A DNA stretch of 50,864 bases from a virus (taxonomy: Duplodnaviria > Heunggongvirae > Uroviricota > Caudoviricetes), in the IMG/VR virus record IMGVR_UViG_2695420685_000015; one strand, given 5' to 3'. Each line of letters starts with the position of its first letter. Position 1 is the stretch's first letter. The position numbers and the translations under genes were made by a program. Positions 2,038 to 30,283 of this stretch are shown in pieces. The notes under the pieces are model-generated. The model made no database searches and was not told where the DNA came from. It saw nothing but the letters and a program-made list of their open reading frames with translations.

Positions 2038-3723
2038 ATGAATACAGCCCTTTCTATCATCGACGATGCCAGCTCAAACACGGCTATCGACTATCGTCAG
2101 GAAATGAATGTCATCCACGAAATCGTGGCCGAGTGCGAGAAAGAGATCGCCTTCATGTATCAGGTACACGACTTCGTTTATGGCGACGAACGCCACAACA
2201 TGATTAATCGCCTGCTGAGACTAAACCATCGACCAGATGAAGATCGCTCGCGTTTAAATCGAGGTTGGTTGGATAAAGTCGATCTGGAATGGGTGAAACA
2301 GAATATTTGGGCCGAGTACTGGAGGAAGGTCACGGACATGACTAACGTTTTGCTGATCATGCCAGCTTCCCGTCGAGATGAGTGGCGCGAGCAGTTTATA
2401 GAGGGCAAACAGGAAGTCATCAAAACTGACAGAACCGGCTACCAGATGAAGGTTAAAGAGTTCGTTGGTGTACCGGAGTTCAAAGCAGAAACGGTCATAC
2501 CCACGATGCTTAATTTGCTGAATGACAGGCACAAATATCTCTCTGAGCGCGTGTATGGCTTGTTTAAGGCGCTGAGTCCTGCGCACAAGACAAATAAGAC
2601 AAACGGTTTCAGCGAGCGGCTGATAATCGCTGACTGCATTTCTGATTTCTGGCGGGACAGCGTTAGCGTGAACTATCGCAAAGAGGACTACATCGACGAT
2701 CTGCGTGTCTTGCTTCATTTCTTCGCGCACAAAGAATTTATTACCATCAACCGCACTGCTGAGGTGCTATCAGCTGCGTATAGGGCAAACGACTGCCAGA
2801 CCGGTGACTGGATGAACGTCGATGGAAATCTGATGCGCGTGAAGATGTTCAAGAACGGCAACGTTCACTTTGAAATACATCCTGACGTGGCCTGGAAGTT
2901 GAATGAGGTGCTGGCTTACAGTATGCCTGCTGCAATCCCCGCGCCATGCCGAACTGCGCCAAAAACACGGGCACCAAAGCAGTTCGGGTTAATCCAGAAG
3001 ACGATCTCCGTGCCGGTTCGCACTGCGCTTCGTGACGGGCGATTGAGCAAAGACAAAGGCGTATGGTACTTCTCTGATTCAGCTCTCCAGAAGTCGCAGG
3101 TGGAAGAGCTTGAGCGCACACTGAGCTTCATTGGCGGCGTGCAGGAGAAAAAGCACTGGCAGTTCCCGTATGACATCGGCCATACGCTAAATACGATTGT
3201 GGCTACCGGTTTAATACCGGATACTAAATCACACCAGTTCTACCCTACCCCACGCTTGATTGCTGAGTACGTTGCCAGAGCCACTGAATTGAAGTCTGGT
3301 GAGAAGCTGCTGGAGCCTCAAGCCGGACGTGGGGATCTTCTGGCCTATATTAACGCCGATCTGGAAGATGTTACCTGCATAGAAATCGCACCTCTCTTCG
3401 CTGATATCCTGCGTGGAAAAGGGTATACGAACACGATTTGCTGCGACTTCATAAAGTGGTCTGAGGACAACGCAGGTTATCAGTTCGACAAAATCGTTAT
3501 GAACCCGCCGTACTCGCTTGGTCGTCATAGAGAGCACACGATGGCTGCGCTGGGGCATCTGAAAGTCGGCGGGCGTCTTGTAGCAGTATTGCCGGGCACT
3601 GCGCCAATACTGGACTGGATGACGATGGATAATTACGTTTATGCCAGAGGGAAGTCGTTTACCAACGAGTTTGAAGACACAGGGATCACAGTCAGCGTAT
3701 ACGTTTTCAAACGCGTTAAATGA
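2038..3723 (+). CDS. orphan N6-adenine DNA methyltransferase with large N-terminal domain of unknown function
   Basis: C-terminal region has motif order FYPTP (motif X), LLEPQAGRGDL (motif I, SAM binding), VMNPPY (motif IV), i.e. gamma-class amino-MTase layout; no adjacent restriction gene. Confidence 0.8.
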   Translation: MNTALSIIDDASSNTAIDYRQEMNVIHEIVAECEKEIAFMYQVHDFVYGDERHNMINRLLRLNHRPDEDRSRLNRGWLDKVDLEWVKQNIWAEYWRKVTDMTNVLLIMPASRRDEWREQFIEGKQEVIKTDRTGYQMKVKEFVGVPEFKAETVIPTMLNLLNDRHKYLSERVYGLFKALSPAHKTNKTNGFSERLIIADCISDFWRDSVSVNYRKEDYIDDLRVLLHFFAHKEFITINRTAEVLSAAYRANDCQTGDWMNVDGNLMRVKMFKNGNVHFEIHPDVAWKLNEVLAYSMPAAIPAPCRTAPKTRAPKQFGLIQKTISVPVRTALRDGRLSKDKGVWYFSDSALQKSQVEELERTLSFIGGVQEKKHWQFPYDIGHTLNTIVATGLIPDTKSHQFYPTPRLIAEYVARATELKSGEKLLEPQAGRGDLLAYINADLEDVTCIEIAPLFADILRGKGYTNTICCDFIKWSEDNAGYQFDKIVMNPPYSLGRHREHTMAALGHLKVGGRLVAVLPGTAPILDWMTMDNYVYARGKSFTNEFEDTGITVSVYVFKRVK

Positions 3724-10612: not shown

Positions 10613-10639
10613 AGGTGGTGCATTGCACCACCTTTTTAT
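10613..10639. terminator. bidirectional terminator between UmuD-prime-like gene and apbC
   Basis: aggtggtgcattgcaccacct hairpin then ttttta. Confidence 0.65.
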
Positions 10640-11739
10640 CACACTGCGCGGAATGCGATTTCGCCAGGTATTACTTCACCTTGCCAATACATTTGGGCAG
10701 CAACGCGATCTGCGAGGTCACGATAAATAGCCGTAAATTCGCTATCTGGACGACTAATAACGGTTGGTGTTCCGTTATCCAGATCTTCACGAAGAGAGAT
10801 ATGAAGTGGCATTTGGCCTAACAACTGCGTGTTGTATTTCTCGGCCAGTTTCTGTGCGCCACCGGTGCCAAAAATTGGCTCGTGATGACCGCAGTTACTG
10901 CAAATATGCACACTCATGTTTTCGACGATACCTAGTACCGGCACTTCGACTTTTTCGAACATCACAATGCCTTTCTTCGCATCGATCAGCGCGATGTCTT
11001 GCGGCGTAGTTACCACAACCGCACCAGTTACAGGAATGTTCTGCGCCAGCGTCAACTGAATATCACCAGTGCCCGGCGGCATATCGAGAACGAGATAGTC
11101 CAGATCAGGCCATAGAGTTTCCTGCAACATCTGCATCAGCGCCTTGCTGGCCATCGGTCCACGCCACACCATTGCATTGTCGTCGGTGACCAGATAACCA
11201 ATAGAGTTGGTTGCCAGGCCATGAGACATGATAGGTGCCATGTGAGTACCGTCAGGTGAGGTTGGACGTTGGTTTTCCGCGCCCAGCATGGTTGGAATTG
11301 ATGGACCATAGATATCGGCATCCAAAATACCAACTTTCGCACCTTCAGCAGCCAAAGCCAGTGCCAAGTTTACTGCTGTGGACGATTTGCCTACACCGCC
11401 CTTGCCTGAGCTTACGGCGATAATATTCTTAACACCATTAATGCCTGGTTGGTTTTTGACGCGCTTAAGCGTGGCAATGTTGTACGACAGCTTCCAGTCA
11501 ATAGCCTTTGCGCCAGTGATACGGAGCAGATCACCACTACATTGCTCTTTCAGGTCTTCAAAAGGCTTATTCCACACGAAAGGCATGATTAGTTCGACAT
11601 GCAGTGTGTCATCCATCAACGCAACATGGTGTAACGCTTTAAGCGTAGTCAGGTTGTGTTTCAGGGTTGGGTGCTGAAAATTAGCCAGCGTACCGGCTAC
11701 CATTGCTCTCAGGGCATCCGGCGATTTGGACTCGCTCAT
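10639..11739 (-). CDS. apbC: iron-sulfur cluster carrier ATPase ApbC/Mrp
   Basis: 366 aa; deviant Walker A SSGKGGVGKSSTAVNLA, C-terminal CSNCGH motif; AAGGAGA RBS; from memory near-identical to E. coli Mrp. Confidence 0.95.
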   Translation of the reverse strand: MSESKSPDALRAMVAGTLANFQHPTLKHNLTTLKALHHVALMDDTLHVELIMPFVWNKPFEDLKEQCSGDLLRITGAKAIDWKLSYNIATLKRVKNQPGINGVKNIIAVSSGKGGVGKSSTAVNLALALAAEGAKVGILDADIYGPSIPTMLGAENQRPTSPDGTHMAPIMSHGLATNSIGYLVTDDNAMVWRGPMASKALMQMLQETLWPDLDYLVLDMPPGTGDIQLTLAQNIPVTGAVVVTTPQDIALIDAKKGIVMFEKVEVPVLGIVENMSVHICSNCGHHEPIFGTGGAQKLAEKYNTQLLGQMPLHISLREDLDNGTPTVISRPDSEFTAIYRDLADRVAAQMYWQGEVIPGEIAFRAV

Positions 11740-11896
11740 CCCGTCTCCTTTATTTTAATTTGCGCAATTGTCGCCTTGTAGTGTACTCCAGCTGCGACAT
11801 TTAATCATTTATGAGAAATGCTGTTATCACATGGCAGACATAAGGCCATTTTGTTACTATCAAGCCCCTTTTCACTACAAAGAAGTAATGCCTACT

Positions 11897-13930
11897 ATGA
11901 CCCAAGTCGCGAAGAAAATTCTGGTGACGTGCGCGCTGCCGTACGCTAACGGCTCAATCCACCTCGGCCATATGCTGGAGCACATCCAGGCTGATGTCTG
12001 GGTTCGTTACCAGCGAATGCGCGGCCACGAGGTTAATTTCATCTGTGCCGACGATGCCCACGGTACGCCGATCATGCTGAAAGCACAGCAACTTGGTATC
12101 ACACCGGAGCAGATGATTGGCGAAATGAGTCAGGAACACCAGACTGATTTCGCAGGCTTTAACATCAGCTATGACAACTATCACTCGACGCACAGCGAAG
12201 AGAACCGTCAGTTGTCTGAGCTTATCTATACTCGCCTGAAAGAGAACGGTTTTATTAAAAATCGCACTATCTCTCAGTTGTACGACCCGGAAAAAGGCAT
12301 GTTCCTGCCGGATCGTTTTGTGAAAGGCACCTGCCCGAAATGTAAAGCGCCAGATCAATACGGCGATAACTGTGAAGTTTGCGGCGCGACCTACAGCCCG
12401 ACTGAACTGATCGAGCCGAAATCGGTGGTTTCTGGTGCTACCCCGGTAATGCGTGATTCTGAACACTTCTTCTTTGATCTGCCCTCTTTCAGCGAAATGT
12501 TGCAGGCATGGACCCGCAGCGGTGCGTTGCAGGAGCAGGTGGCAAACAAAATGCAGGAGTGGTTTGAATCTGGTCTGCAACAGTGGGATATCTCCCGCGA
12601 CGCACCTTACTTCGGTTTTGAAATTCCGAACGCGCCGGGTAAATATTTCTACGTCTGGCTGGACGCACCGATTGGCTACATGGGTTCCTTCAAGAATCTG
12701 TGCGACAAGCGCGGCGACACTACCAGCTTCGATGAATACTGGAAGAAAGACTCCACCGCCGAGCTGTACCACTTCATCGGTAAAGATATCGTTTACTTCC
12801 ACAGCCTGTTCTGGCCTGCCATGCTGGAAGGCAGCAACTTCCGCAAGCCGACCAACCTGTTTGTTCACGGCTATGTGACGGTGAACGGCGCGAAGATGTC
12901 CAAGTCTCGCGGCACCTTTATTAAAGCCAGCACCTGGTTGAATCATTTTGACGCTGACAGCCTGCGTTACTACTACACTGCGAAACTCTCTTCGCGCATT
13001 GATGATATCGATCTCAACCTGGAGGATTTCGTTCAGCGTGTGAATGCCGATATCGTGAACAAAGTGGTTAACCTGGCGTCCCGTAACGCTGGCTTTATCA
13101 ATAAGCGTTTTGACGGTGTGCTGGCAAGCGAGCTGGCTGACCCGCAGTTGTACAAAACCTTCACTGATGCCGCTGAAGTGATTGGTGAAGCGTGGGAAAG
13201 CCGCGAATTTGGTAAAGCTATCCGTGAAATCATGGCACTGGCTGACCTGGCTAACCGCTATGTCGACGAGCAGGCTCCTTGGGTAGTCGCAAAACAGGAA
13301 GGTCGCGATGCTGACCTGCAGGCGATTTGCTCAATGGGCATCAACCTGTTCCGCGTGCTGATGACTTACCTGAAACCGGTACTGCCGAAACTGACAGAAC
13401 GTGCGGAAGCATTCCTGAATACGGAACTGACCTGGGATGGCATCCAGCAACCGCTGCTGGGCCATAAAGTGAATCCGTTCAAAGCACTGTATAACCGTAT
13501 CGACATGAAACAGGTGGAAGCATTGGTGGAAGCGTCTAAAGAAGAAGTGAAAGCTACTGCCGCGCCAGTTACTGGCCCGCTGGCAGACGACCCGATTCAG
13601 GAAACCATCACCTTTGACGACTTTGCCAAAGTTGACCTGCGCGTGGCACTGATCGAAAACGCAGAGTTTGTTGAAGGTTCTGACAAACTGCTGCGCCTGA
13701 CGCTGGATCTCGGCGGTGAAAAACGCAATGTCTTCTCAGGCATCCGTTCTGCTTATCCAGACCCACAGGCACTGATTGGTCGTCACACCATTATGGTGGC
13801 TAACCTGGCTCCGCGTAAGATGCGCTTCGGCATCTCCGAAGGTATGGTGATGGCTGCTGGCCCCGGCGGGAAAGATATCTTCCTGTTAAGCCCGGATGCT
13901 GGTGCTAAACCTGGCCACCAGGTTAAGTAA
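11897..13930 (+). CDS. metG: methionyl-tRNA synthetase
   Basis: 677 aa from ATG 11897 (track start 11768 is an upstream extension); [15 protein letters not shown] motif, KMSKS motif, CPKC...CEVC zinc knuckles, C-terminal tRNA-binding domain; from memory ~99% identical to E. coli MetG. Confidence 0.97.
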
Positions 13931-23384: not shown

Positions 23385-24944
23385 CTAATCTCGTTTCAGA
23401 ACTCCAAAATCGAATGCTCCATCAATAGGCAATACACCTTCTGCAAAGCCAGGTGTGGTGTCGATGATGTGTTTTCGCTCATAAGAGTGAGACAACAGGT
23501 ATTTGTTGCTAATGTCAATGAAATCAGTGATAAAACACACGTTTGCCTGATTTTTTTTGGCTCGTAAGCCACGACCGACACGCTGCCTCATTTCAACTTC
23601 TGCTTTCCCACCACCAGCAAGAATGACCGCACCAACGCTTGGCACATCAACACCGACATCCAGAATAGTCGAGCCTATTAAAACATCTATTTCTCCAGAC
23701 GCTAAACTGTTCAGCTTTGCTTGCCTTGTCGCCTGGTTAGATTCCCCATAGATGAAGTCAACTCTAAGGCCGGACTCTTTCATCATTTCCATCAGGATTT
23801 GCCCGTGGCGTTTAAGACGAACCAGAGTCATACAATTGAGAGAATGTTGCTTATAGAGCAATGCTTCGCGAACAATGGCCTCGTTACGTCCCAAATTATA
23901 CACGATCCCCAACTGATAAGCCTTTTGGTAGGCGGTGCTCATACCAACTCTAAAATTGAGGTGTTTGTTGGCAAGTTCGGCCTTGATTCTGGCCTCGTCT
24001 GGCTTGTAGGCAACTTTATGATAAAGGAAGTACGGCTTTGCCAGAATGCCTCGATCAATCAGGTACTTTTCTGTGACTTTAATTTCAATTCGCCCGGCCA
24101 CCGCCATCAGGCGCATGTTGGCTTCCGTCGAATCCTTCATGAACGGCGTGGCTGTAAGCGCCAGACGATAGTCTGCGTTCACACATAATCTGGCGATGTC
24201 ATAGAAATTTGAGCCTGAAGACTCATGCGCCTCTTCCAGAATAAGAAGAGAGACACTTGAAAGGAAGCGTTTCACCAACTCCCGACGTTTGAGGTGGTAG
24301 CTTTTCTTATCTGGTGTTGCATCGCGTGGTGGTTCTTCGAGGAAACTTGCAAGAGTTTGAACTGTAGCGACGTTGATATGTCGTGATACCTGGAACTCAC
24401 CCGAGCCAATGACTCCAACCTTTTGGTCTTTTAACCACGGTTCGCCATTTTCGGCGCGGTAGTCGATGGATCTCTGGAAGTTTTCGGCCATTTGAAACAT
24501 CAGAACAGAGCGGGTTGTTAAAAATAATGTCATTCGACCGATACGTGCAGCTGCTTTGCAGGCAACGTTAGATTTCCCGCCACCAGTAGCGATCTGCGCA
24601 ATCATCATTCCCTCTCGAACCAGTGTTTCCACAGTCTGATCCTGATACGCATAATCAGGATTGTATGGGAATGGGTTAACCGCCGGATTTGGTTTACCAA
24701 GCGCCGGGGCTTTGTCTTTGCGGATATGAACACATTTGATGCCCGCCTTGTTCAAGTTCGCCGCTACAGGCTTGGCAAAGCCAGCAGGGAACGAGTTTTT
24801 ACTCCAGTTGAACATCGTGCTTGTGCCCTTCCAGTCGCCAGTCTCGACTTCGTAGCTCAACATTTGCTGCACCAGTTGCTTTACCTTGTCATCTGCGCCA
24901 GAAATAAGCGCATTTACTGCGTTAGATACAATCCGAACAGTCAT
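23385..24944 (-). CDS. superfamily-2 DEAD/DEAH-type helicase
   Basis: Walker A ATGGGKS, motif II LILEEAHES, motif III LTATP, motif VI QRVGRGLR; AAGGAAAGAGG RBS. Confidence 0.85.
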   Translation of the reverse strand: MTVRIVSNAVNALISGADDKVKQLVQQMLSYEVETGDWKGTSTMFNWSKNSFPAGFAKPVAANLNKAGIKCVHIRKDKAPALGKPNPAVNPFPYNPDYAYQDQTVETLVREGMMIAQIATGGGKSNVACKAAARIGRMTLFLTTRSVLMFQMAENFQRSIDYRAENGEPWLKDQKVGVIGSGEFQVSRHINVATVQTLASFLEEPPRDATPDKKSYHLKRRELVKRFLSSVSLLILEEAHESSGSNFYDIARLCVNADYRLALTATPFMKDSTEANMRLMAVAGRIEIKVTEKYLIDRGILAKPYFLYHKVAYKPDEARIKAELANKHLNFRVGMSTAYQKAYQLGIVYNLGRNEAIVREALLYKQHSLNCMTLVRLKRHGQILMEMMKESGLRVDFIYGESNQATRQAKLNSLASGEIDVLIGSTILDVGVDVPSVGAVILAGGGKAEVEMRQRVGRGLRAKKNQANVCFITDFIDISNKYLLSHSYERKHIIDTTPGFAEGVLPIDGAFDFGVLKRD

Positions 24945-24986
24945 AAACCTCTTTCCTTAGTGCCTTTTGTATGTTATTTGGCTATT

Positions 24987-25007
24987 ATAATAAGTAAGTG
25001 ATTACAT
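24987..25007. promoter_or_regulatory. class-B-like element in divergent helicase/ParB region
   Basis: ataataagtaagtgattacat, 20 nt upstream of ATG 25027. Confidence 0.35.
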
Positions 25008-25026
25008 AGTGGATTGTAGCAATAAA

Positions 25027-25707
25027 ATGGATGTAAAAATCACGATTTTGCAGGTTGATGTTGCCAACCTTCGCCCGAATACCTGGAACACCAATTCGGT
25101 TGGTGCGCAGAATTTTGAAAAACTGAAAGGTTCTATCGAAAAATTGGGCTTTTTTAAGCCAATTTTGGCTCGTGAACTTGAAGATGGATTTTTTGAAATC
25201 CTCGGCGGCGAACATCGCTGGCGTGCTGCTATTGAGCAAGGAATTTCAACGGTTCCGGTGCTTTCTGTGGGCAAAATTAGCGATGTCGTAGCTAAACAGA
25301 TGTCACTGGTGGACAACGAGCGATACGGTGAAGACGACCAAATCGCATTGCAACGCTTCATTGAAGAAATTCAGTCAGAACTTGACTATCAACTGTCTGA
25401 AATCGCCCCGTATGACGACGAAATCTCGATGGTTTTAGCAAAAGAGGCGGCAATCGACCTTGAAGCACTGGAGGCGTTGTCTCGTGGTAGTGATGAGCCT
25501 GTCGATACCGACAAACGAGAGAAAACCGAACGTGTGGGTGCGGAACATCAGACCATGCGCTTCAAAGTAACTTTCGATGCGTCAGATCGTGTTGCAGAAA
25601 CCATAAAAAACATCATCAAAGAGCAGGCTATTAACACCGGTAATGAAATGGAGAACGCTGGTGAGGCTCTGGTGTGGCTGGTCGACTACTACAAGGAGCG
25701 TATGTAA
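25027..25707 (+). CDS. ParB-like nuclease-domain protein 1
   Basis: ParB/Srx N-domain pattern KPILARELEDGFFEILGGEHRWRAAIEQGISTVPV; start ambiguous (GTG 25009 or ATG 25027). Confidence 0.6.
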   Translation: MDVKITILQVDVANLRPNTWNTNSVGAQNFEKLKGSIEKLGFFKPILARELEDGFFEILGGEHRWRAAIEQGISTVPVLSVGKISDVVAKQMSLVDNERYGEDDQIALQRFIEEIQSELDYQLSEIAPYDDEISMVLAKEAAIDLEALEALSRGSDEPVDTDKREKTERVGAEHQTMRFKVTFDASDRVAETIKNIIKEQAINTGNEMENAGEALVWLVDYYKERM

Positions 25708-26375
25708 TGACCAAAAAGTTTGAAATCGTATATCGCGACCCGGCAGATCTTATTCCCTATGAGATGAATGCCAAAAAGCATGATGAACAGCAGATCCGAG
25801 ATCTAGCCGCAGCCATTAAAAAGCGCGGATTTGACCAGCCAATTACGGTCGATAAGAACGACGTAATTATTACTGGCCACGGCCGCCGTGAGGCTGCAAT
25901 TTTTGCTGGACTTGAGCGCGTACCGGTTATTGTTCGCGATGATCTCAGTGATGACGAGGTTCGTGCGAAGCGCCTTGAAGATAACCGACTTGCCAGCATT
26001 GATTACGATGCAATTAAGCTACAGAAAGAGCTTGAGTCGCTTGTTCTGGACGATATCGAGGTTTTCGGCTTTGAAGAGCGTGAGTTGAATGTTCTCGTTG
26101 GCAGTATGACAGAAGAAATGGACACCGACTCGCTAGTTATCGATCTTGGCGAAGAAACTAAACGACAGAAGGATGAACACACCGAGATCAGTCGTGAAGT
26201 TGCAGCGGAAGAAGTACGTGTTGTCGACGTATTGGGCTTTAAAACGCTCCCTGCTGGCTCTGCCATTGTTGTTGGTGATTTGCTTGCCCACATGGAAGAA
26301 ATGACGGGAGAAAGCGGGGTAGACGCATTTGTGGCATATGCGGAGAAGATCTCTTCCGGGGAGATGGCTGCATGA
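25707..26375 (+). CDS. ParB-like nuclease-domain protein 2
   Basis: ATG overlaps upstream TAA; ITVDKNDVIITGHGRREAAIFAGLERVPVIV fits the ParB GxxRxxA box. Confidence 0.6.
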   Translation: MTKKFEIVYRDPADLIPYEMNAKKHDEQQIRDLAAAIKKRGFDQPITVDKNDVIITGHGRREAAIFAGLERVPVIVRDDLSDDEVRAKRLEDNRLASIDYDAIKLQKELESLVLDDIEVFGFEERELNVLVGSMTEEMDTDSLVIDLGEETKRQKDEHTEISREVAAEEVRVVDVLGFKTLPAGSAIVVGDLLAHMEEMTGESGVDAFVAYAEKISSGEMAA

Positions 26376-27037
26376 GCAAATACATCATCAACGTATCGTT
26401 TCAGACACGCGTAAATAAAACCACGCGCACGTTGGAAATCGCTGAGTCGTTCGGGCTTGGCCTGGACGAAAAAGAGTGGACGCTTTACGACAATCTGGAG
26501 CTGGAAGTGAAGCAGGGCGATGTGGTGTACATCACCGGCCAATCCGGTTCCGGCAAATCCGTTGTGCTGCGCGAGTTGCAACGACAGATGAAGGATGAAG
26601 GGCTGTCTGTAGCCTCCATCGATGATTTTACCTTCGATAATGAGGTTAACGTCATCGATCAGTTGGGCAAAACGACCAGTGATGCGCTTGGGTTGTTATC
26701 TATGGCTGGTCTGAACGATGCATATCTGTTTGTTCGCAAGCCTTCTGAAATGTCAGACGGCCAGAAATATCGTCTCAAGATTGCCAAACTGATTGAGTCA
26801 GGCGCTAAAGTGTGGGCTGCTGACGAGTTCGGCGCTGTTCTCGACCGTGTAACCGCTCAGGTTGTGGCGTCTAACCTCCAGCGTGCCGCTCGAAAGGTTG
26901 GTGCGACGGTAATGGTGGCGACGACTCACGAAGACCTGAAGAACGCGCTGCGCCCGGATATGCAGATCACCAAGCACTACAAAGAACGCGTGAAGGTGGA
27001 ATATCACAATGGTAGTCACGATGAGGTCCATTCATGA
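26372..27037 (+). CDS. ABC-type P-loop ATPase
   Basis: Walker A GQSGSGKS, signature-like MSDGQKYRLKIA, Walker B VWAADEFG; 221 aa; coupled ATGA start. Confidence 0.65.
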   Translation: MSKYIINVSFQTRVNKTTRTLEIAESFGLGLDEKEWTLYDNLELEVKQGDVVYITGQSGSGKSVVLRELQRQMKDEGLSVASIDDFTFDNEVNVIDQLGKTTSDALGLLSMAGLNDAYLFVRKPSEMSDGQKYRLKIAKLIESGAKVWAADEFGAVLDRVTAQVVASNLQRAARKVGATVMVATTHEDLKNALRPDMQITKHYKERVKVEYHNGSHDEVHS

Positions 27038-27924
27038 CGGACATCATCATTAAACGCTACCGCCCTGAAGAGTTTCCGCGTCATCTGGACTTTCTGGAGC
27101 GAATGACTGTTACAAAGGGAACTGTAGAGGACTGGCACGCTCTTAAGTCGCTTCACTACAAAACAGACGGCAAACCTTTCGCGCCAACTTACTATCGCTG
27201 CGAACTTGATGACCGTCTGGTGGGCGTCGTGGTTATGGCTTACCCGAAACTACTGTTGGCACCTCGCCACCGCATGTTTCCTAAGTTGAAACCAACCACT
27301 AATACCACCGTGGCTAACCAGTACTGGGGTCGGTACGTGAATAACAACTTTGCGGTGATCAGTCGCTCAGTTGTGGATACTCAGTATCGTGGCGTAGGCG
27401 TCTCTTATCGAATGATTAACCTGGTTAGCAGGATGCATGACCGGCCAATCATTGAGATCCAGTCCTCGATGAGCAAATACAATCCCTTCGCCATGAAAGC
27501 AGGGTTTAAGTTCATCCGCCCTGAGCGACCGAAGAGCTATGAAAGTGCACTGCGTGTATTCCAGCGCCATTTCCGTTCCGACCCGGGTGATAACGAGGCG
27601 ATCGTCAAAGAGTTGTTCGCAATGAGCGAGTCTCGTCGTCGCCGTGCACTGCGTGATCTGGTGGCGGACTACCACAAGAACAGTTCCCTGGCAAAAGCTG
27701 GGCGGAATCGTGGCACGACGATTCAGGACATTGCCGACAGTCTGGTGGACGAGGCCAGCATTGTGAAGTTGCTCAAGGACATTCACAACCTGAGCTTTAC
27801 GTCTCCGTTGTATGGGGTGTATCGAAACCCTGACTTTGGTCGTCGACTGCCTGACACGCTGCCACTGCTGGCATTCGACAAACAACCTTTGGATAAACCG
27901 TTAGAAATTGCTTTACCGGCATAA
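27034..27924 (+). CDS. hypothetical protein (possible acetyltransferase-like N-terminal region)
   Basis: 296 aa; YRGVGVSYRMINLV loosely resembles GNAT motif A; weak. Confidence 0.45.
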   Translation: MTDIIIKRYRPEEFPRHLDFLERMTVTKGTVEDWHALKSLHYKTDGKPFAPTYYRCELDDRLVGVVVMAYPKLLLAPRHRMFPKLKPTTNTTVANQYWGRYVNNNFAVISRSVVDTQYRGVGVSYRMINLVSRMHDRPIIEIQSSMSKYNPFAMKAGFKFIRPERPKSYESALRVFQRHFRSDPGDNEAIVKELFAMSESRRRRALRDLVADYHKNSSLAKAGRNRGTTIQDIADSLVDEASIVKLLKDIHNLSFTSPLYGVYRNPDFGRRLPDTLPLLAFDKQPLDKPLEIALPA

Positions 27925-27933
27925 GGATTTGCC

Positions 27934-28200
27934 ATGACGTTAACCGATAAACAAAAGGACATCATCAAAACGCTCAATCTCGGTTATGAGCGAGGTCATC
28001 TACTTGATCTGGACGAATTGCTTGAAGTTTTGCCGTACAAGACAACCAAGCAAAGTATCCAGTTCTCAATTCGCGCTCTGATAAAAAAGGGGCTTGTGGA
28101 GAAAGGGCATACGCGCCAACGCAGTGACAATCGCTATCACCGCCGAACTCTTGGGTTAACCACTTTAGGTCGAGCCAAAGCGAAGTTACTGGTGATGTAA
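27934..28200 (+). CDS. small putative DNA-binding protein
   Basis: 88 aa, basic C-terminal half, AAGGAT RBS. Confidence 0.45.
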   Translation: MTLTDKQKDIIKTLNLGYERGHLLDLDELLEVLPYKTTKQSIQFSIRALIKKGLVEKGHTRQRSDNRYHRRTLGLTTLGRAKAKLLVM

Positions 28201-28244
28201 TCGGTCTGGGAGCTTATTTAAAGACCTGCTTCTGTATATAAATA

Positions 28245-28259
28245 ATAAGTAACTTATTA
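28245..28259. promoter_or_regulatory. class-B palindrome copy
   Basis: ataagtaacttatta upstream of terminase promoter region. Confidence 0.4.
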
Positions 28260-28313
28260 AATATATACGGAAGCAGGCTTAATAAGACATGCCCAGACCT
28301 AATTAAACAACCC

Positions 28314-28355
28314 AGAAAACAAGTTGGTTAGAAAATGCAGTAAACAAGTTGTTTT
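28314..28355 (+). promoter_or_regulatory. class-A motif pair upstream of terminase small subunit
   Basis: AGAAAACAAGTTGGTT at 28314-28329 and AAACAAGTTGTTTT at 28342-28355. Confidence 0.5.
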
Positions 28356-28386
28356 AGAGCGCATGGACGCGCTCTGTGTGTTTTAG
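28356..28386 (+). terminator. promoter-proximal terminator-like hairpin in terS leader
   Basis: agagcgcatggacgcgctct hairpin followed by gtgtgtttt, about 10 nt before ATG 28395. Confidence 0.45.
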
Positions 28387-28394
28387 AGGGATCT

Positions 28395-29027
28395 ATGACG
28401 GTCGAAAAAGACGAGGTAAAAACTCGCCTGACACCAGCGGAGTGGGCCGAAGCTGAAGCCAAATGGACGTCAGGCGAATATACACTCTCAAAGCTGGAGG
28501 AAGAGTACGGCATTCGTCGTGAAACACTCTCCAGACATTTCAAAAAGCGAGGATTAGAGAAAGGCGCGGACTCTGTTGGGAAGATGGTTCGTGAGTCTCT
28601 TAAATCTGACGCAGAGCTTCGCGCTAAAGCCCGTGCGGAAAAGATAGAAGAACGTCGTACACGTTATGACGGCTGGGCGTATGCGTTGGGGCAGATGGTG
28701 ATGGTCGAAGTCACTACGGCCAAACGTGAGGGTAAGCCTTTAGGGGCGATTGAGGATTCTCTCAAGAGCTTACAGAGAGCCAGTAATACCCTTGCAAAAT
28801 GCTTTGAAGTTTCGTCCAAAGCATTGGGCATGGATCATGCGGAAAATGACGAGGAAGAAATTCCGAACCTGGTATTTGGTGAGCTTACGCCTTCCCAGGT
28901 GGCGAAATTACGTCAGGAAGACGACGAGCCTGAAATCATCGATGACGAATTGCTTGAGACGTTGGAAGAAGAAGCTCTAAGCGAATTTGATGCGACAGAT
29001 GATGGAAGTGAAGGGGAGGACGAATAA
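28395..29027 (+). CDS. terminase small subunit
   Basis: 210 aa, N-terminal HTH-like segment, highly acidic C-terminus, immediately upstream of and coupled to the large subunit. Confidence 0.7.
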   Translation: MTVEKDEVKTRLTPAEWAEAEAKWTSGEYTLSKLEEEYGIRRETLSRHFKKRGLEKGADSVGKMVRESLKSDAELRAKARAEKIEERRTRYDGWAYALGQMVMVEVTTAKREGKPLGAIEDSLKSLQRASNTLAKCFEVSSKALGMDHAENDEEEIPNLVFGELTPSQVAKLRQEDDEPEIIDDELLETLEEEALSEFDATDDGSEGEDE

Positions 29028-30283
29028 TGGCAATCCCGTCCTCGCTCAGTCTTGTGCAACTGCATTCTGGACAGATGAAAGTCTTCCAGTCTCCGCATCG
29101 ATTTAAAGTTGTTTGTGCTGGTCGACGCTGGGGAAAATCCCGGTTGTCGATCTCCACTATTATTCGTGCGGCGGCAAAGGAAAAAAAGCAAAGGGTCTGG
29201 TATGTCGCTCCTACTTACCAGATGGCTCGCCAGATTTTGTGGGACGATCTACAGGAAGTTCTGCCTCGTAAGTGGGTTAGGAAAAAGAACGACACCACGA
29301 TGACAATCGTGTTGAAGAACGGTTCGGAGATCGCCCTCAAAGGTGCTGATAAGCCTGACACTCTGCGCGGCGTAGCGTTGCATTTTGTAGTGCTTGATGA
29401 ATTTCAGGATATGAAGGCTGACACCTGGTACAAGGTGTTACGACCTACTCTTTCATCGACACGCGGCGGTGCACTTATCATTGGTACGCCAAAAGGTTTC
29501 TCGGAATTTCACAAACTGTGGACTATAGGCCAGAACGTAGAGCTGCAAAGAAAGGGACAGTGGAAGAGCTGGCAGTTTGTAACTGCCGATTCTCCGTTTG
29601 TGCCTACGGCGGAAATTGAAGCTGCTAAGAACGATATGGACCCGAAATCGTTCGCTCAGGAGTACCTGGCGAGCTTTGAGAACATGTCCGGGCGCGTTTA
29701 CTACCCGTTCGATCGTAACGTGCATGTAAAACCGCTTCAGTTCAACCCTCGGTTGCCTATATGGGTAGGGCAGGACTTCAACATTGACCCGATGTCTTCA
29801 GTAATTTTGCAACCTCAGCCAAATGGTGAGCTATGGGCAATTGATGAATTGGTGCTCTTTTCCTCTAACACGGCAGAGGTTTGTGATGAGCTTGAGAGAC
29901 GCTTCTGGCGCTGGAAATCACAGATAACGGTATTTCCAGATCCGGCAGGTGCTTATCGCCAACATGCTCGCGGGGAGTCTGACGTCGACATATTCAAAGA
30001 GAAGGGATTCTTACGTGTCGATTATTCGAAAAAGCACCCGCCAATTGCGGATCGTGTTAATGCTGTTAACCGAATGCTGATGACCGCATCTGGAGATATC
30101 CGGTTGTATATCGATCCGAAGTGCAAGCATTTGATTGATTCACTGGAAAAAGTCATCTACAAGCCTGGAACACGAGATATGGATAAGACAGGTGGCATTG
30201 AGCATAGTGCAGACGCATTGGGCTATCCAGTACATCGTAGGTATCCAGTCAAAAACCGTGTTATTCTTGGTGGTTCTAGATAG
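29027..30283 (+). CDS. terminase large subunit
   Basis: Walker A VVCAGRRWGKS, Walker B HFVVLDEF; 418 aa; followed by portal. Confidence 0.8.
   Translation: MAIPSSLSLVQLHSGQMKVFQSPHRFKVVCAGRRWGKSRLSISTIIRAAAKEKKQRVWYVAPTYQMARQILWDDLQEVLPRKWVRKKNDTTMTIVLKNGSEIALKGADKPDTLRGVALHFVVLDEFQDMKADTWYKVLRPTLSSTRGGALIIGTPKGFSEFHKLWTIGQNVELQRKGQWKSWQFVTADSPFVPTAEIEAAKNDMDPKSFAQEYLASFENMSGRVYYPFDRNVHVKPLQFNPRLPIWVGQDFNIDPMSSVILQPQPNGELWAIDELVLFSSNTAEVCDELERRFWRWKSQITVFPDPAGAYRQHARGESDVDIFKEKGFLRVDYSKKHPPIADRVNAVNRMLMTASGDIRLYIDPKCKHLIDSLEKVIYKPGTRDMDKTGGIEHSADALGYPVHRRYPVKNRVILGGSR

Follow-up and report, generated by a model that had tools for sequence, protein, structure and literature searches.

Two ParB-like proteins and a split ABC-GNAT enzyme form a conserved cassette beside the terminase genes of SSU5-like phage-plasmids and may acylate phage DNA

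What do two ParB-like proteins, an ABC-type ATPase, an acetyltransferase-like protein and a small basic protein do together directly upstream of a phage terminase? The question is raised by a five-gene cassette at positions 25,027 to 28,200 of a tailed-phage sequence (IMG/VR record IMGVR_UViG_2695420685_000015, Caudoviricetes), of which the whole 50,864-nucleotide stretch is referred to here as the window. An earlier description made from the sequence alone (the original prediction) had proposed a DNA modification or maturation system, a packaging accessory complex or a partition-like system. The window is part of an SSU5-like phage-plasmid of about 108 kb, as judged from the identity of region 25000-29100 to the Escherichia phage-plasmids CMS-2020a, PhiR41_1 and Cyrano (pLF82) (98.6-99.3%), Salmonella phage SSU5 (85%) and Klebsiella relatives (approximately 80%). 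Homology to fused proteins encoded elsewhere shows that the ATPase and the 296-amino-acid protein correspond to two halves of one split enzyme, and we tentatively favor a role of the whole cassette in modifying phage DNA. The cassette consists of the following genes:

25027-25707, plus strand: ParB1, 226 amino acids, with a ParB/Srx N-terminal nucleoside triphosphate (NTP)-binding domain
25707-26375, plus strand: ParB2, 222 amino acids, ATG start, a ParB/Srx paralogue
26372-27037, plus strand: ABC-type ATPase, 221 amino acids, ATPase half of the split ABC-GNAT enzyme
27034-27924, plus strand: GNAT-fold acyltransferase, 296 amino acids, transferase half of the split ABC-GNAT enzyme
27934-28200, plus strand: p5, a basic protein of 88 amino acids, the final cassette gene

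All five open reading frames lie on the plus strand at the coordinates predicted for them, with the implied start of ParB2 within 3 nt. From 5' to 3', the gene junctions are TAATG, ATGA, ATGA and a 9-nt spacer containing AAGGA, and because of these junctions the five genes are regarded as one tightly coupled unit; the translational coupling proposed earlier is borne out by the first three. In a PHROG profile search, the five products fell in phrog_723, 930, 293, 886 and 900, respectively (E values of 1e-45 to 1e-165). Since each protein has its own PHROG family and the order is conserved down to about 40% protein identity, the arrangement is, on family membership and synteny, far beyond chance. 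No transmembrane segment was detected in any of the five products (maximum 19-residue hydropathy of 1.46, under the transmembrane range).

The ATPase matches Pfam ABC_tran with an E value of 6e-13 versus 0.0014 for CbiA/ParA, has all of its motifs intact (Walker A GQSGSGKS, signature MSDGQ, Walker B VWAADE and H-loop TTH) and is without a coiled-coil insert. The 296-amino-acid protein matched Pfam GNAT only below threshold (E value of 0.037), and no family for it, including no defense or toxin family, was found in NCBIfam or PADLOC. Its family alignment comprised 28 homologues at 41-83% identity, and because a search of PDB sequences with the family profile gave nothing meaningful (best E value of 0.78), the fold was taken from structure prediction. 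The predicted structure (predicted local distance difference test [pLDDT] of 83) has a GNAT fold at approximately residues 20-165, and Mom, a DNA-modifying GNAT, was among the best structural matches in two libraries. When compared with predicted viral structures, phage Mom was the second-best match, and further matches included several "endonuclease-like" proteins of 530-560 amino acids over approximately 260-275 aligned columns. The acyl-CoA pyrophosphate-binding motif R119-x-x-G122-x-S/A is kept in the family beside many other invariant residues. Residues from about 170 to 296 form a conserved, basic helical/beta C-terminal domain with no recognizable relative.

The profile of the 296-amino-acid family retrieved 859 proteins, many of which are 440-500 amino acids long, with the GNAT-like part at about residues 200-480 and a Pfam ABC_tran domain N-terminal to it. 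This fused ABC-GNAT protein is encoded on at least 557 IMG/VR contigs. The window ATPase matches the N-terminal halves of the fused proteins with phmmer E values of 1e-49 to 1e-65, whereas its matches to transporter nucleotide-binding domains in the PDB are far weaker, at approximately 1e-13; the GNAT parts of the window and fused proteins match with E values of about 1e-13 to 1e-27. Both window proteins are matched by phrog_11143, and their genes overlap by ATGA at 27034-27037. On the basis of the fused relatives, the match of the ATPase to their N-terminal halves and the overlap, the two proteins are halves of a single, split enzyme. The 296-amino-acid protein carries the database name [quoted passage not shown] which was inherited from the fused family. 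The weak acetyltransferase-like signature noted in the original prediction agrees with the GNAT fold, but the label "unknown" does not hold for half of a known family.

Relative to fused ABC-GNAT proteins (the MK0520/COG2401 type of phages and archaea; phrog_293 and phrog_886), both halves of the window enzyme are homologous and in the same domain order. Conserved motifs are held in common, including a C-terminal Y-x-x-NP patch, and the context is likewise that of a phage. The window enzyme differs in being split into two overlapping genes, with relatives often carrying genes inserted between the halves, and its cassette adds two separate ParB paralogues and a winged-helix-like protein. No experimental work on the family, fused or split and including MK0520/COG2401, was found in the literature searched. 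Among the fused proteins, one of 847 amino acids (P0163) contains a LAGLIDADG-endonuclease intein inside its ABC domain.

The profile searches likewise upheld the two ParB-like assignments. ParB1 matches Pfam ParB_N (E value of 3e-13) and phrog_723 (1e-78) and has the motif GEHRWRAA; ParB2 matches ParB_N (1e-8) and phrog_930 (1e-112) and has the motifs PYExNAKxH and GHGRREAA. Both are strongly acidic, with net charges of -18 for ParB1 and -22 for ParB2. The two can be aligned only over the N-terminal 147 residues of ParB1, their N-domains being 33% identical and their C termini unrelated, and on this comparison they are old paralogues. In PDB searches, the nearest solved structures were those of Spo0J, ParB and Noc, with similarity confined to the nucleotide-binding domain. 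Pfam detected no HTH_ParB (PF17762) in ParB1 or ParB2, and a motif search found no ParA-binding motif [LFI]G[KR]G[LFI] in either. The predicted structure of ParB2 (pLDDT of 82), the only one of the two ParBs that was modeled, begins with a nucleotide-binding domain (residues 1-97) and continues through a pair of short helices and an acidic linker of low confidence to a small helical C-terminal domain, with no helix-turn-helix (HTH) DNA-binding domain. Beyond its own family, ParB2 best matches the ParB domains that phage DNA methyltransferases carry (phrog_498, E value of 1e-31; PADLOC MTase_II, 3e-17).

The ParB-like domain and the ABC-GNAT enzyme also occur on one polypeptide. Four clusters of proteins of 666-699 amino acids combine a ParB-like domain, a zinc ribbon, an ABC domain and a GNAT domain. 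Their N-terminal region aligns to the ParB2 family with an hhalign probability of 97.5% (E value of 7e-12) and to archaeal pNOB8 ParB (9e-7) and Myxococcus ParB (8e-6) in the PDB. Because three domain types of the cassette share a single chain elsewhere, the ParBs and the enzyme appear to work together, for which these fusions are the strongest evidence and conserved synteny adds further support. In another lineage, a family-B DNA polymerase (PolB) is joined to ABC and GNAT domains in a 1,260-amino-acid protein found in 35 collection blocks; its gene sits in a replication module with a 5'-3' exonuclease, a primase-helicase and RecA, and no terminase is nearby. In other loci, PolB is encoded by a gene adjacent to and overlapping that of ABC-GNAT.

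The neighborhoods of fused ABC-GNAT genes may also bear on chemistry. In 14 of the 55 loci with enough downstream sequence (among L029-L089), an ASCH-domain gene (Pfam E value of 4e-7) faces the fused gene convergently, and the 3' ends of the two often overlap (for example, L050 9307-9678, minus strand). The ASCH family includes N4-acylcytosine amidohydrolases (PMC6972931), and ASCH proteins erase N4-acetylcytidine (ac4C) from tRNA (bioRxiv 10.64898/2026.02.27.708502), and this neighbor hints at the chemistry of the ABC-GNAT product. A gene annotated as ASCH in SSU5-like phages (CYRAN_64) was set aside; Pfam gives no confirmation, and it is unrelated to the ASCH genes beside fused ABC-GNAT.

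Two further observations concern these neighborhoods. In 25 of 80 contigs (L010-L089), no more than 300 bp of assembled sequence follows the fused ABC-GNAT gene, which hints at a genome terminus or a hard-to-assemble region. A canonical full-length ParB (ParB_N plus HTH_ParB, 416-457 amino acids) is encoded a few kilobases from some fused ABC-GNAT or ParB-ABC-GNAT genes (L199 4502-5875, minus strand; L053 11926-13176; L077 13071-14417).

The split, five-gene form of the module is conserved across species. A search for the same order in other genomes, as the original prediction had suggested, was made in GTDB with one genome per species and returned 26 loci in Gamma- and Alphaproteobacteria, with hosts including Xenorhabdus, Morganella, Photobacterium, Halomonas, Sphingomonas, Magnetospirillum and Paracoccus. 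Each of the 25 untruncated loci retains the order, and a small p5-type protein was detected after the GNAT gene in 20 of them. Many loci are on contigs of about 100-118 kb, and some are on megabase-scale chromosomal contigs (for example, L004, L179 and L196). Three distant relatives, with GNAT proteins at 43-47% identity, read helicase (minus strand), ParB, ParB, ABC, variable inserts, GNAT, small protein, gap, terS, terL and portal. The arrangement with two ParBs was seen only in the SSU5-like lineage. A scan of IMG/VR with the alignment of the 296-amino-acid family returned close relatives only (80-100% identity) and carries no information on deep conservation.

The cassette is not the unusual arrangement that it was first taken to be, since it is widespread in SSU5-like phage-plasmids. 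It matches 772 plasmids in PLSDB, with 80% or more of its length covered in 719 of them, as well as 12 phage records. The plasmid hosts are mostly Klebsiella, Escherichia, Enterobacter, Yersinia and Salmonella, and Yersinia pestis pMT1 (NC_004835.1) carries the cassette at 85.6% identity. The carriers are of medical relevance: phage-plasmids of the SSU5 type occur commonly in Klebsiella, E. coli, Salmonella and Enterobacter and disseminate resistance genes.

Among the relatives, the ABC/GNAT junction is an insertion hot spot and the ParB2/ABC junction a lesser one, while the five core genes persist. Inserts at the ABC/GNAT junction (L002 5995-6546, L003 6961-7999 and L005 7598-7997) include an open reading frame of 183 amino acids with no Pfam family in Klebsiella phages and, in Ectothiorhodospira, gp49/66-family and RyR-domain genes plus one open reading frame without a Pfam family; gaps of up to about 0.9 kb occur there in several Alphaproteobacteria (L181-L194). 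The downstream terL also varies. Compared with 418 codons in the window, its open reading frame has about 750-840 codons in Xenorhabdus hominickii and Novosphingobium and is replaced by two open reading frames over about 2.8 kb in Chelativorans (L175, L181 and L189), which suggests inteins or other inserts. On the chromosome of Halomonas sulfidaeris (L196), the whole helicase-cassette-terminase-portal block is decayed, with most genes in fragments, and appears to be a degraded prophage.

The sequences flanking the cassette contain the following features:

23385-24944, minus strand: UvsW-like SF2 helicase gene (Pfam ResIII/DEAD/Helicase_C), divergent from the cassette
24945-25026, no strand assigned: divergent regulatory region of 82 bp between the UvsW-like helicase gene and ParB1
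28203-28299, no strand assigned: imperfect palindrome of 97 bp with 48-nt arms (73% complementary) and an AT-rich center
28355-28376, plus strand: terminator-like GC-rich hairpin with a T-tract, 18 nt ahead of the terS start codon
28395-29027, plus strand: terS-like gene, 210 amino acids, phrog_867, outside the cassette
29027-30283, plus strand: terL, 418 amino acids, outside the cassette, with the portal gene next

The helicase gene keeps its position next to the cassette in all relatives. Downstream, a gap of 194 bp separates p5 from the terS-like gene, beyond which terL and the portal gene follow in that order. The terminator-like hairpin before terS, together with the palindrome, suggests that the cassette is a transcription unit separate from the late operon, and the hairpin is identical in sequence in a Klebsiella relative. 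In 24945-25026, no promoter of canonical sigma-70 form with a proper -35 box was detected, and a consensus promoter scan yielded no convincing cassette promoter, with sites no more frequent than in shuffled sequence. A tandem 25-nt direct repeat lies just before the terS hairpin (28303-28327 and 28328-28352, each copy ending AAACAAGTTG), and the repeat and hairpin (28303-28376) resemble a late-operon control element, possibly one of antitermination.

The palindromes on the two sides of the cassette are related in sequence. At the center of the 97-bp palindrome between p5 and terS is a perfect 17-nt palindrome, TAATAAGTAACTTATTA, at 28243-28259, and a near-palindrome, TAATAAGTAAGTGATTA, overlaps a TATAAT box upstream of ParB1 at 24988-25004. 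A search of the window for the 17-mer, with each site scored on both strands, found only these two sites, the second with 2 mismatches, where 0.06 matches were expected. Palindromes of like layout and other sequence occupy the same position in Klebsiella, Ectothiorhodospira and two metagenomic relatives, and the GenBank records of SSU5 and Cyrano are linearized at window position 28259/28260, by the 17-mer in the palindrome center. The 97-bp palindrome could be an operator, a protein-loading site or a DNA/genome-end site. The p5 protein has a net charge of +9, belongs to phrog_900 (E value of 2e-45) and has only weak winged-helix matches (Sta1/Lrs14, 0.003-0.004; a CARF-associated C-terminal region, 4.5e-5), consistent with the small basic DNA-binding protein described earlier. 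It is probably a winged-helix DNA binder, and it may bind the palindromes flanking the cassette.

Of the three roles first proposed, DNA modification has the best support, from the protein fold, the fusions, the kin of ParB2 and published precedent. We suggest, tentatively and at somewhat less than an even chance, that the cassette carries out a ParB-assisted, ATP-driven acyl modification of phage DNA before packaging. The ABC heads would dimerize in an ATP-driven manner, clamping the enzyme on double-stranded phage DNA and helping to offer a base to the GNAT site, where an acyl group would be moved from acyl-CoA to the exocyclic amine of the base. The two acidic ParB paralogues could act as NTP-gated clamps or activators that keep the enzyme on DNA, as does the ParB partner of thymine dioxygenases, and DNA contact would be supplied by the basic p5, possibly at the flanking palindromes, and by the basic C-terminal domain of the GNAT protein. 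With the cassette as a putatively separate transcription unit next to the genes of replication/recombination and the terminase, the mark would be put on progeny DNA as it replicates or afterward but ahead of packaging, either as a shield from host restriction and defense or as a tag for phage DNA. A more specific form of this proposal, which we consider doubtful, is a nucleotide-gated, clamp-like DNA acyltransferase that writes an undescribed acylated base, such as N4-acyl-deoxycytidine, with ASCH amidohydrolases as erasers or readers. If true, both the enzymatic route and the natural DNA base that it yields would be new.

This proposal draws on the GNAT fold with its match to Mom, the ABC-GNAT, PolB and ParB fusions, the methyltransferase-associated kin of ParB2, a published prediction and a precedent for ParB. 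In the accessible part of Iyer et al. [quoted passage not shown] O'Toole et al. (2026) found that a subclass of phage thymine dioxygenases needs ParB to act on double-stranded DNA, and they record the older hypothesis that ParB homologues direct DNA-modification enzymes (PMC13229309). Kaljevic et al. (2025) described ParB-fold fusions to N6/N4 methyltransferases, which are phage enriched, to acetyltransferases, one a GTP binder, and to ASCH domains (PMC12704722). The cassette would be a variant of ParB-assisted and GNAT DNA modification, the ABC-GNAT core having been foreseen computationally.

Several points weigh against DNA acylation. A modified base has been shown for no SSU5-like phage or plasmid and would be invisible from sequence. 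The ABC domain is closer to nucleotide-binding domains of the transporter type than to those of the SMC/Rad50/RecF type. The strong acidity of the two ParBs and the partial changes in their NTP-binding motifs (GEHRWR and GHGRRE) leave clamp behavior conjectural for them. The ASCH gene is convergent rather than co-operonic and occurs in only a quarter of the loci, and the Cyrano gene annotated as ASCH lacks Pfam support. Finally, adjacency to terminase genes in three lineages fits a packaging role equally well.

The closest functional parallels each share part of the cassette. As with 5mYOX and its ParB activator (PMC13229309), a phage ParB is encoded beside a presumed DNA-modifying enzyme, and the ParB2 model predicts the same makeup, in which a nucleotide-binding domain is followed by a short pair of helices, a linker and a C-terminal domain and a DNA-binding domain is absent. 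The window differs in having ABC-GNAT as the partner rather than an Fe/2-oxoglutarate dioxygenase and two ParB paralogues rather than one, and a dependence of its enzyme on ParB would hold by analogy. Prophage fusions of a ParB domain to a DNA methyltransferase (phrog_498; MTase_II PDLC03229) share the PYExNAKxH and GHGR motifs of ParB2, although the window encodes its ParB as a protein of its own and the transferase is predicted to use acyl-CoA rather than S-adenosylmethionine. Genes for such fusions are typically near terminase genes. Phage Mu Mom, a GNAT-fold DNA adenine methylcarbamoyl transferase, has 11% identity to the 296-amino-acid protein and no relationship at the sequence level, so that the latter falls outside the Mom family; Mom is also without an ATPase or ParB partner, and the window protein has an extra C-terminal domain. 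In the 7-deazaguanine system, a ParB-like NTPase, DpdB, aids DNA modification by its partner, the transglycosylase DpdA (summarized in PMC12839542), but the chemistry and the enzyme family are others, and Dpd is a bacterial defense island rather than a phage operon near late genes.

If the module acylates DNA, an ATP-driven, ParB-assisted GNAT pathway, and maybe a new natural base, would be added to the few known disguises of phage genomes, and ParB proteins would have a second, independent case as cofactors of DNA-modifying enzymes. Hundreds of clinical Enterobacterales phage-plasmids would carry the acylation route, as would Yersinia pestis pMT1, and a DNA mark could affect the restriction barriers, host range and sequencing behavior of these plasmids.

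The enzyme could also be an acyltransferase for something other than DNA, be it a protein of the host or phage, an RNA such as tRNA, or a small molecule (for example, a nucleotide or polyamine), serving host takeover or counter-defense with the ABC and ParB domains as nucleotide-sensing regulators only. An ATPase module combined with a GNAT that acetylates a nucleic-acid base is the layout of the tRNA cytidine acetyltransferase TmcA/NAT10, which offers an analogy for how the window enzyme might work. The activity of ASCH proteins on tRNA ac4C points the same way (bioRxiv 10.64898/2026.02.27.708502), as do the non-DNA enzymes among ParB/Srx folds and the GTP-binding ParB-acetyltransferase fusion (PMC12704722). 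The PolB fusions, the repeated adjacency to terminase and helicase genes and the fusion to methyltransferase-type ParB domains instead point to DNA, the GNAT protein matches no PADLOC defense or toxin family, and a late-gene neighborhood is atypical for early host-takeover genes, so that we consider such a target rather unlikely. A packaging or maturation accessory, in which the complex works with terminase on concatemeric DNA without base modification, draws some support from gene order. The cassette ends 194 bp ahead of terS; on one contig from an unrelated phage, a ParB-ABC-GNAT fusion is directly upstream of a 158-amino-acid gene, terL and a PF04860 portal; and in 40 of 80 IMG/VR loci, a terL of a third kind immediately precedes the fused ABC-GNAT gene. 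Identity among the three TerLs does not exceed 24%, and the module abuts terminase genes in three mutually distant phage lineages. The complex might prepare or recognize a start site at the layout-conserved 97-bp palindrome between cassette and terS, at which the records of SSU5 and Cyrano are cut, or its acetylation target might be a protein of packaging or of the head. However, late-expressed DNA-modifying genes are often near terminase genes, and adjacency therefore does not discriminate packaging from modification. The lineage with the PolB fusion places the module in a replication module with no terminase nearby, the hairpin and palindrome part the cassette from terS, and its control region is common with the helicase gene. 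We know of no packaging system that uses a GNAT, and overall we consider the packaging role unlikely. Should a protein or the packaging machinery be the target, an unstudied accessory to DNA packaging would be defined by the recurrent link of ParB-ABC-GNAT to terminase genes.

The partition-like system, with ParB-like proteins binding a centromere at the palindrome and the ATPase separating copies in lysogeny, did not stand and is now highly improbable. It would suit a low-copy phage-plasmid (Cyrano has 5.5 copies per cell [PMC9928086]) with a palindrome adjoining the operon as a candidate centromere, and the ParB N-terminal domains have the fold of those in ParABS and are closest in the PDB to chromosomal ParB, Spo0J and Noc. 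Both proteins, however, are without HTH_ParB by Pfam and without a ParA-binding motif, and there is no HTH in the ParB2 model. The acidic ParBs are paired with ABC-GNAT and have no adjacent ParA, the adjoining ATPase being of the ABC type rather than a deviant-Walker ParA. Cyrano has a separate small ParA/MipZ-type ATPase (CYRAN_28) with neighboring genes that lysogens express. The published lysogeny-expressed list does not contain the cassette genes (CYRAN_119-123), which is weak evidence as that list excluded "typical phage genes." The cassette is also kept on megabase-scale chromosomal contigs of integrated relatives and travels with terminase rather than with rep or par genes, and pMT1 is partitioned by a P1-type parABS. 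The Cyrano "MinD" gene (window 10639-11739) was considered as a partition ATPase and rejected, being of the NUBPL/Mrp/ApbC type by Pfam and beside a MetRS gene. The database label "ABC transporter ATP-binding protein" raises a last alternative, a transporter subunit, which is almost certainly wrong. The 221-amino-acid protein does resemble transporter nucleotide-binding domains, and the PHROG and GenBank names agree, but the cassette encodes no membrane-spanning product, its neighbors are helicase and terminase genes, and the true partner of the ATPase is a soluble GNAT to which it is fused in hundreds of relatives. The label is thus a misnomer, there being no membrane segment or permease and the fusions being to GNAT.

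A GNAT toxin-antitoxin pair of the KacT/TacT type was also considered and rejected. The 296-amino-acid protein, with its extra domain, exceeds the approximately 160-180 amino acids of such toxins, the small gene comes after it and not before, neither PADLOC nor Pfam gave a toxin match, and the annotated KacT pair of Cyrano is separate.

Elsewhere in the window, a divergent gene pair at 10639-13930 has a G+C content raised to 0.50-0.53 and encodes a Mrp/ApbC/NUBPL-type P-loop protein (Pfam E value of 2e-102; "MinD" in Cyrano) and a full-length methionyl-tRNA synthetase. The pair is probably captured host DNA, because its layout is like that of the host mrp-metG locus. In the accessory region, 2038-3723 encodes a 561-amino-acid protein with a DUF4942 domain (E value of 2e-20).

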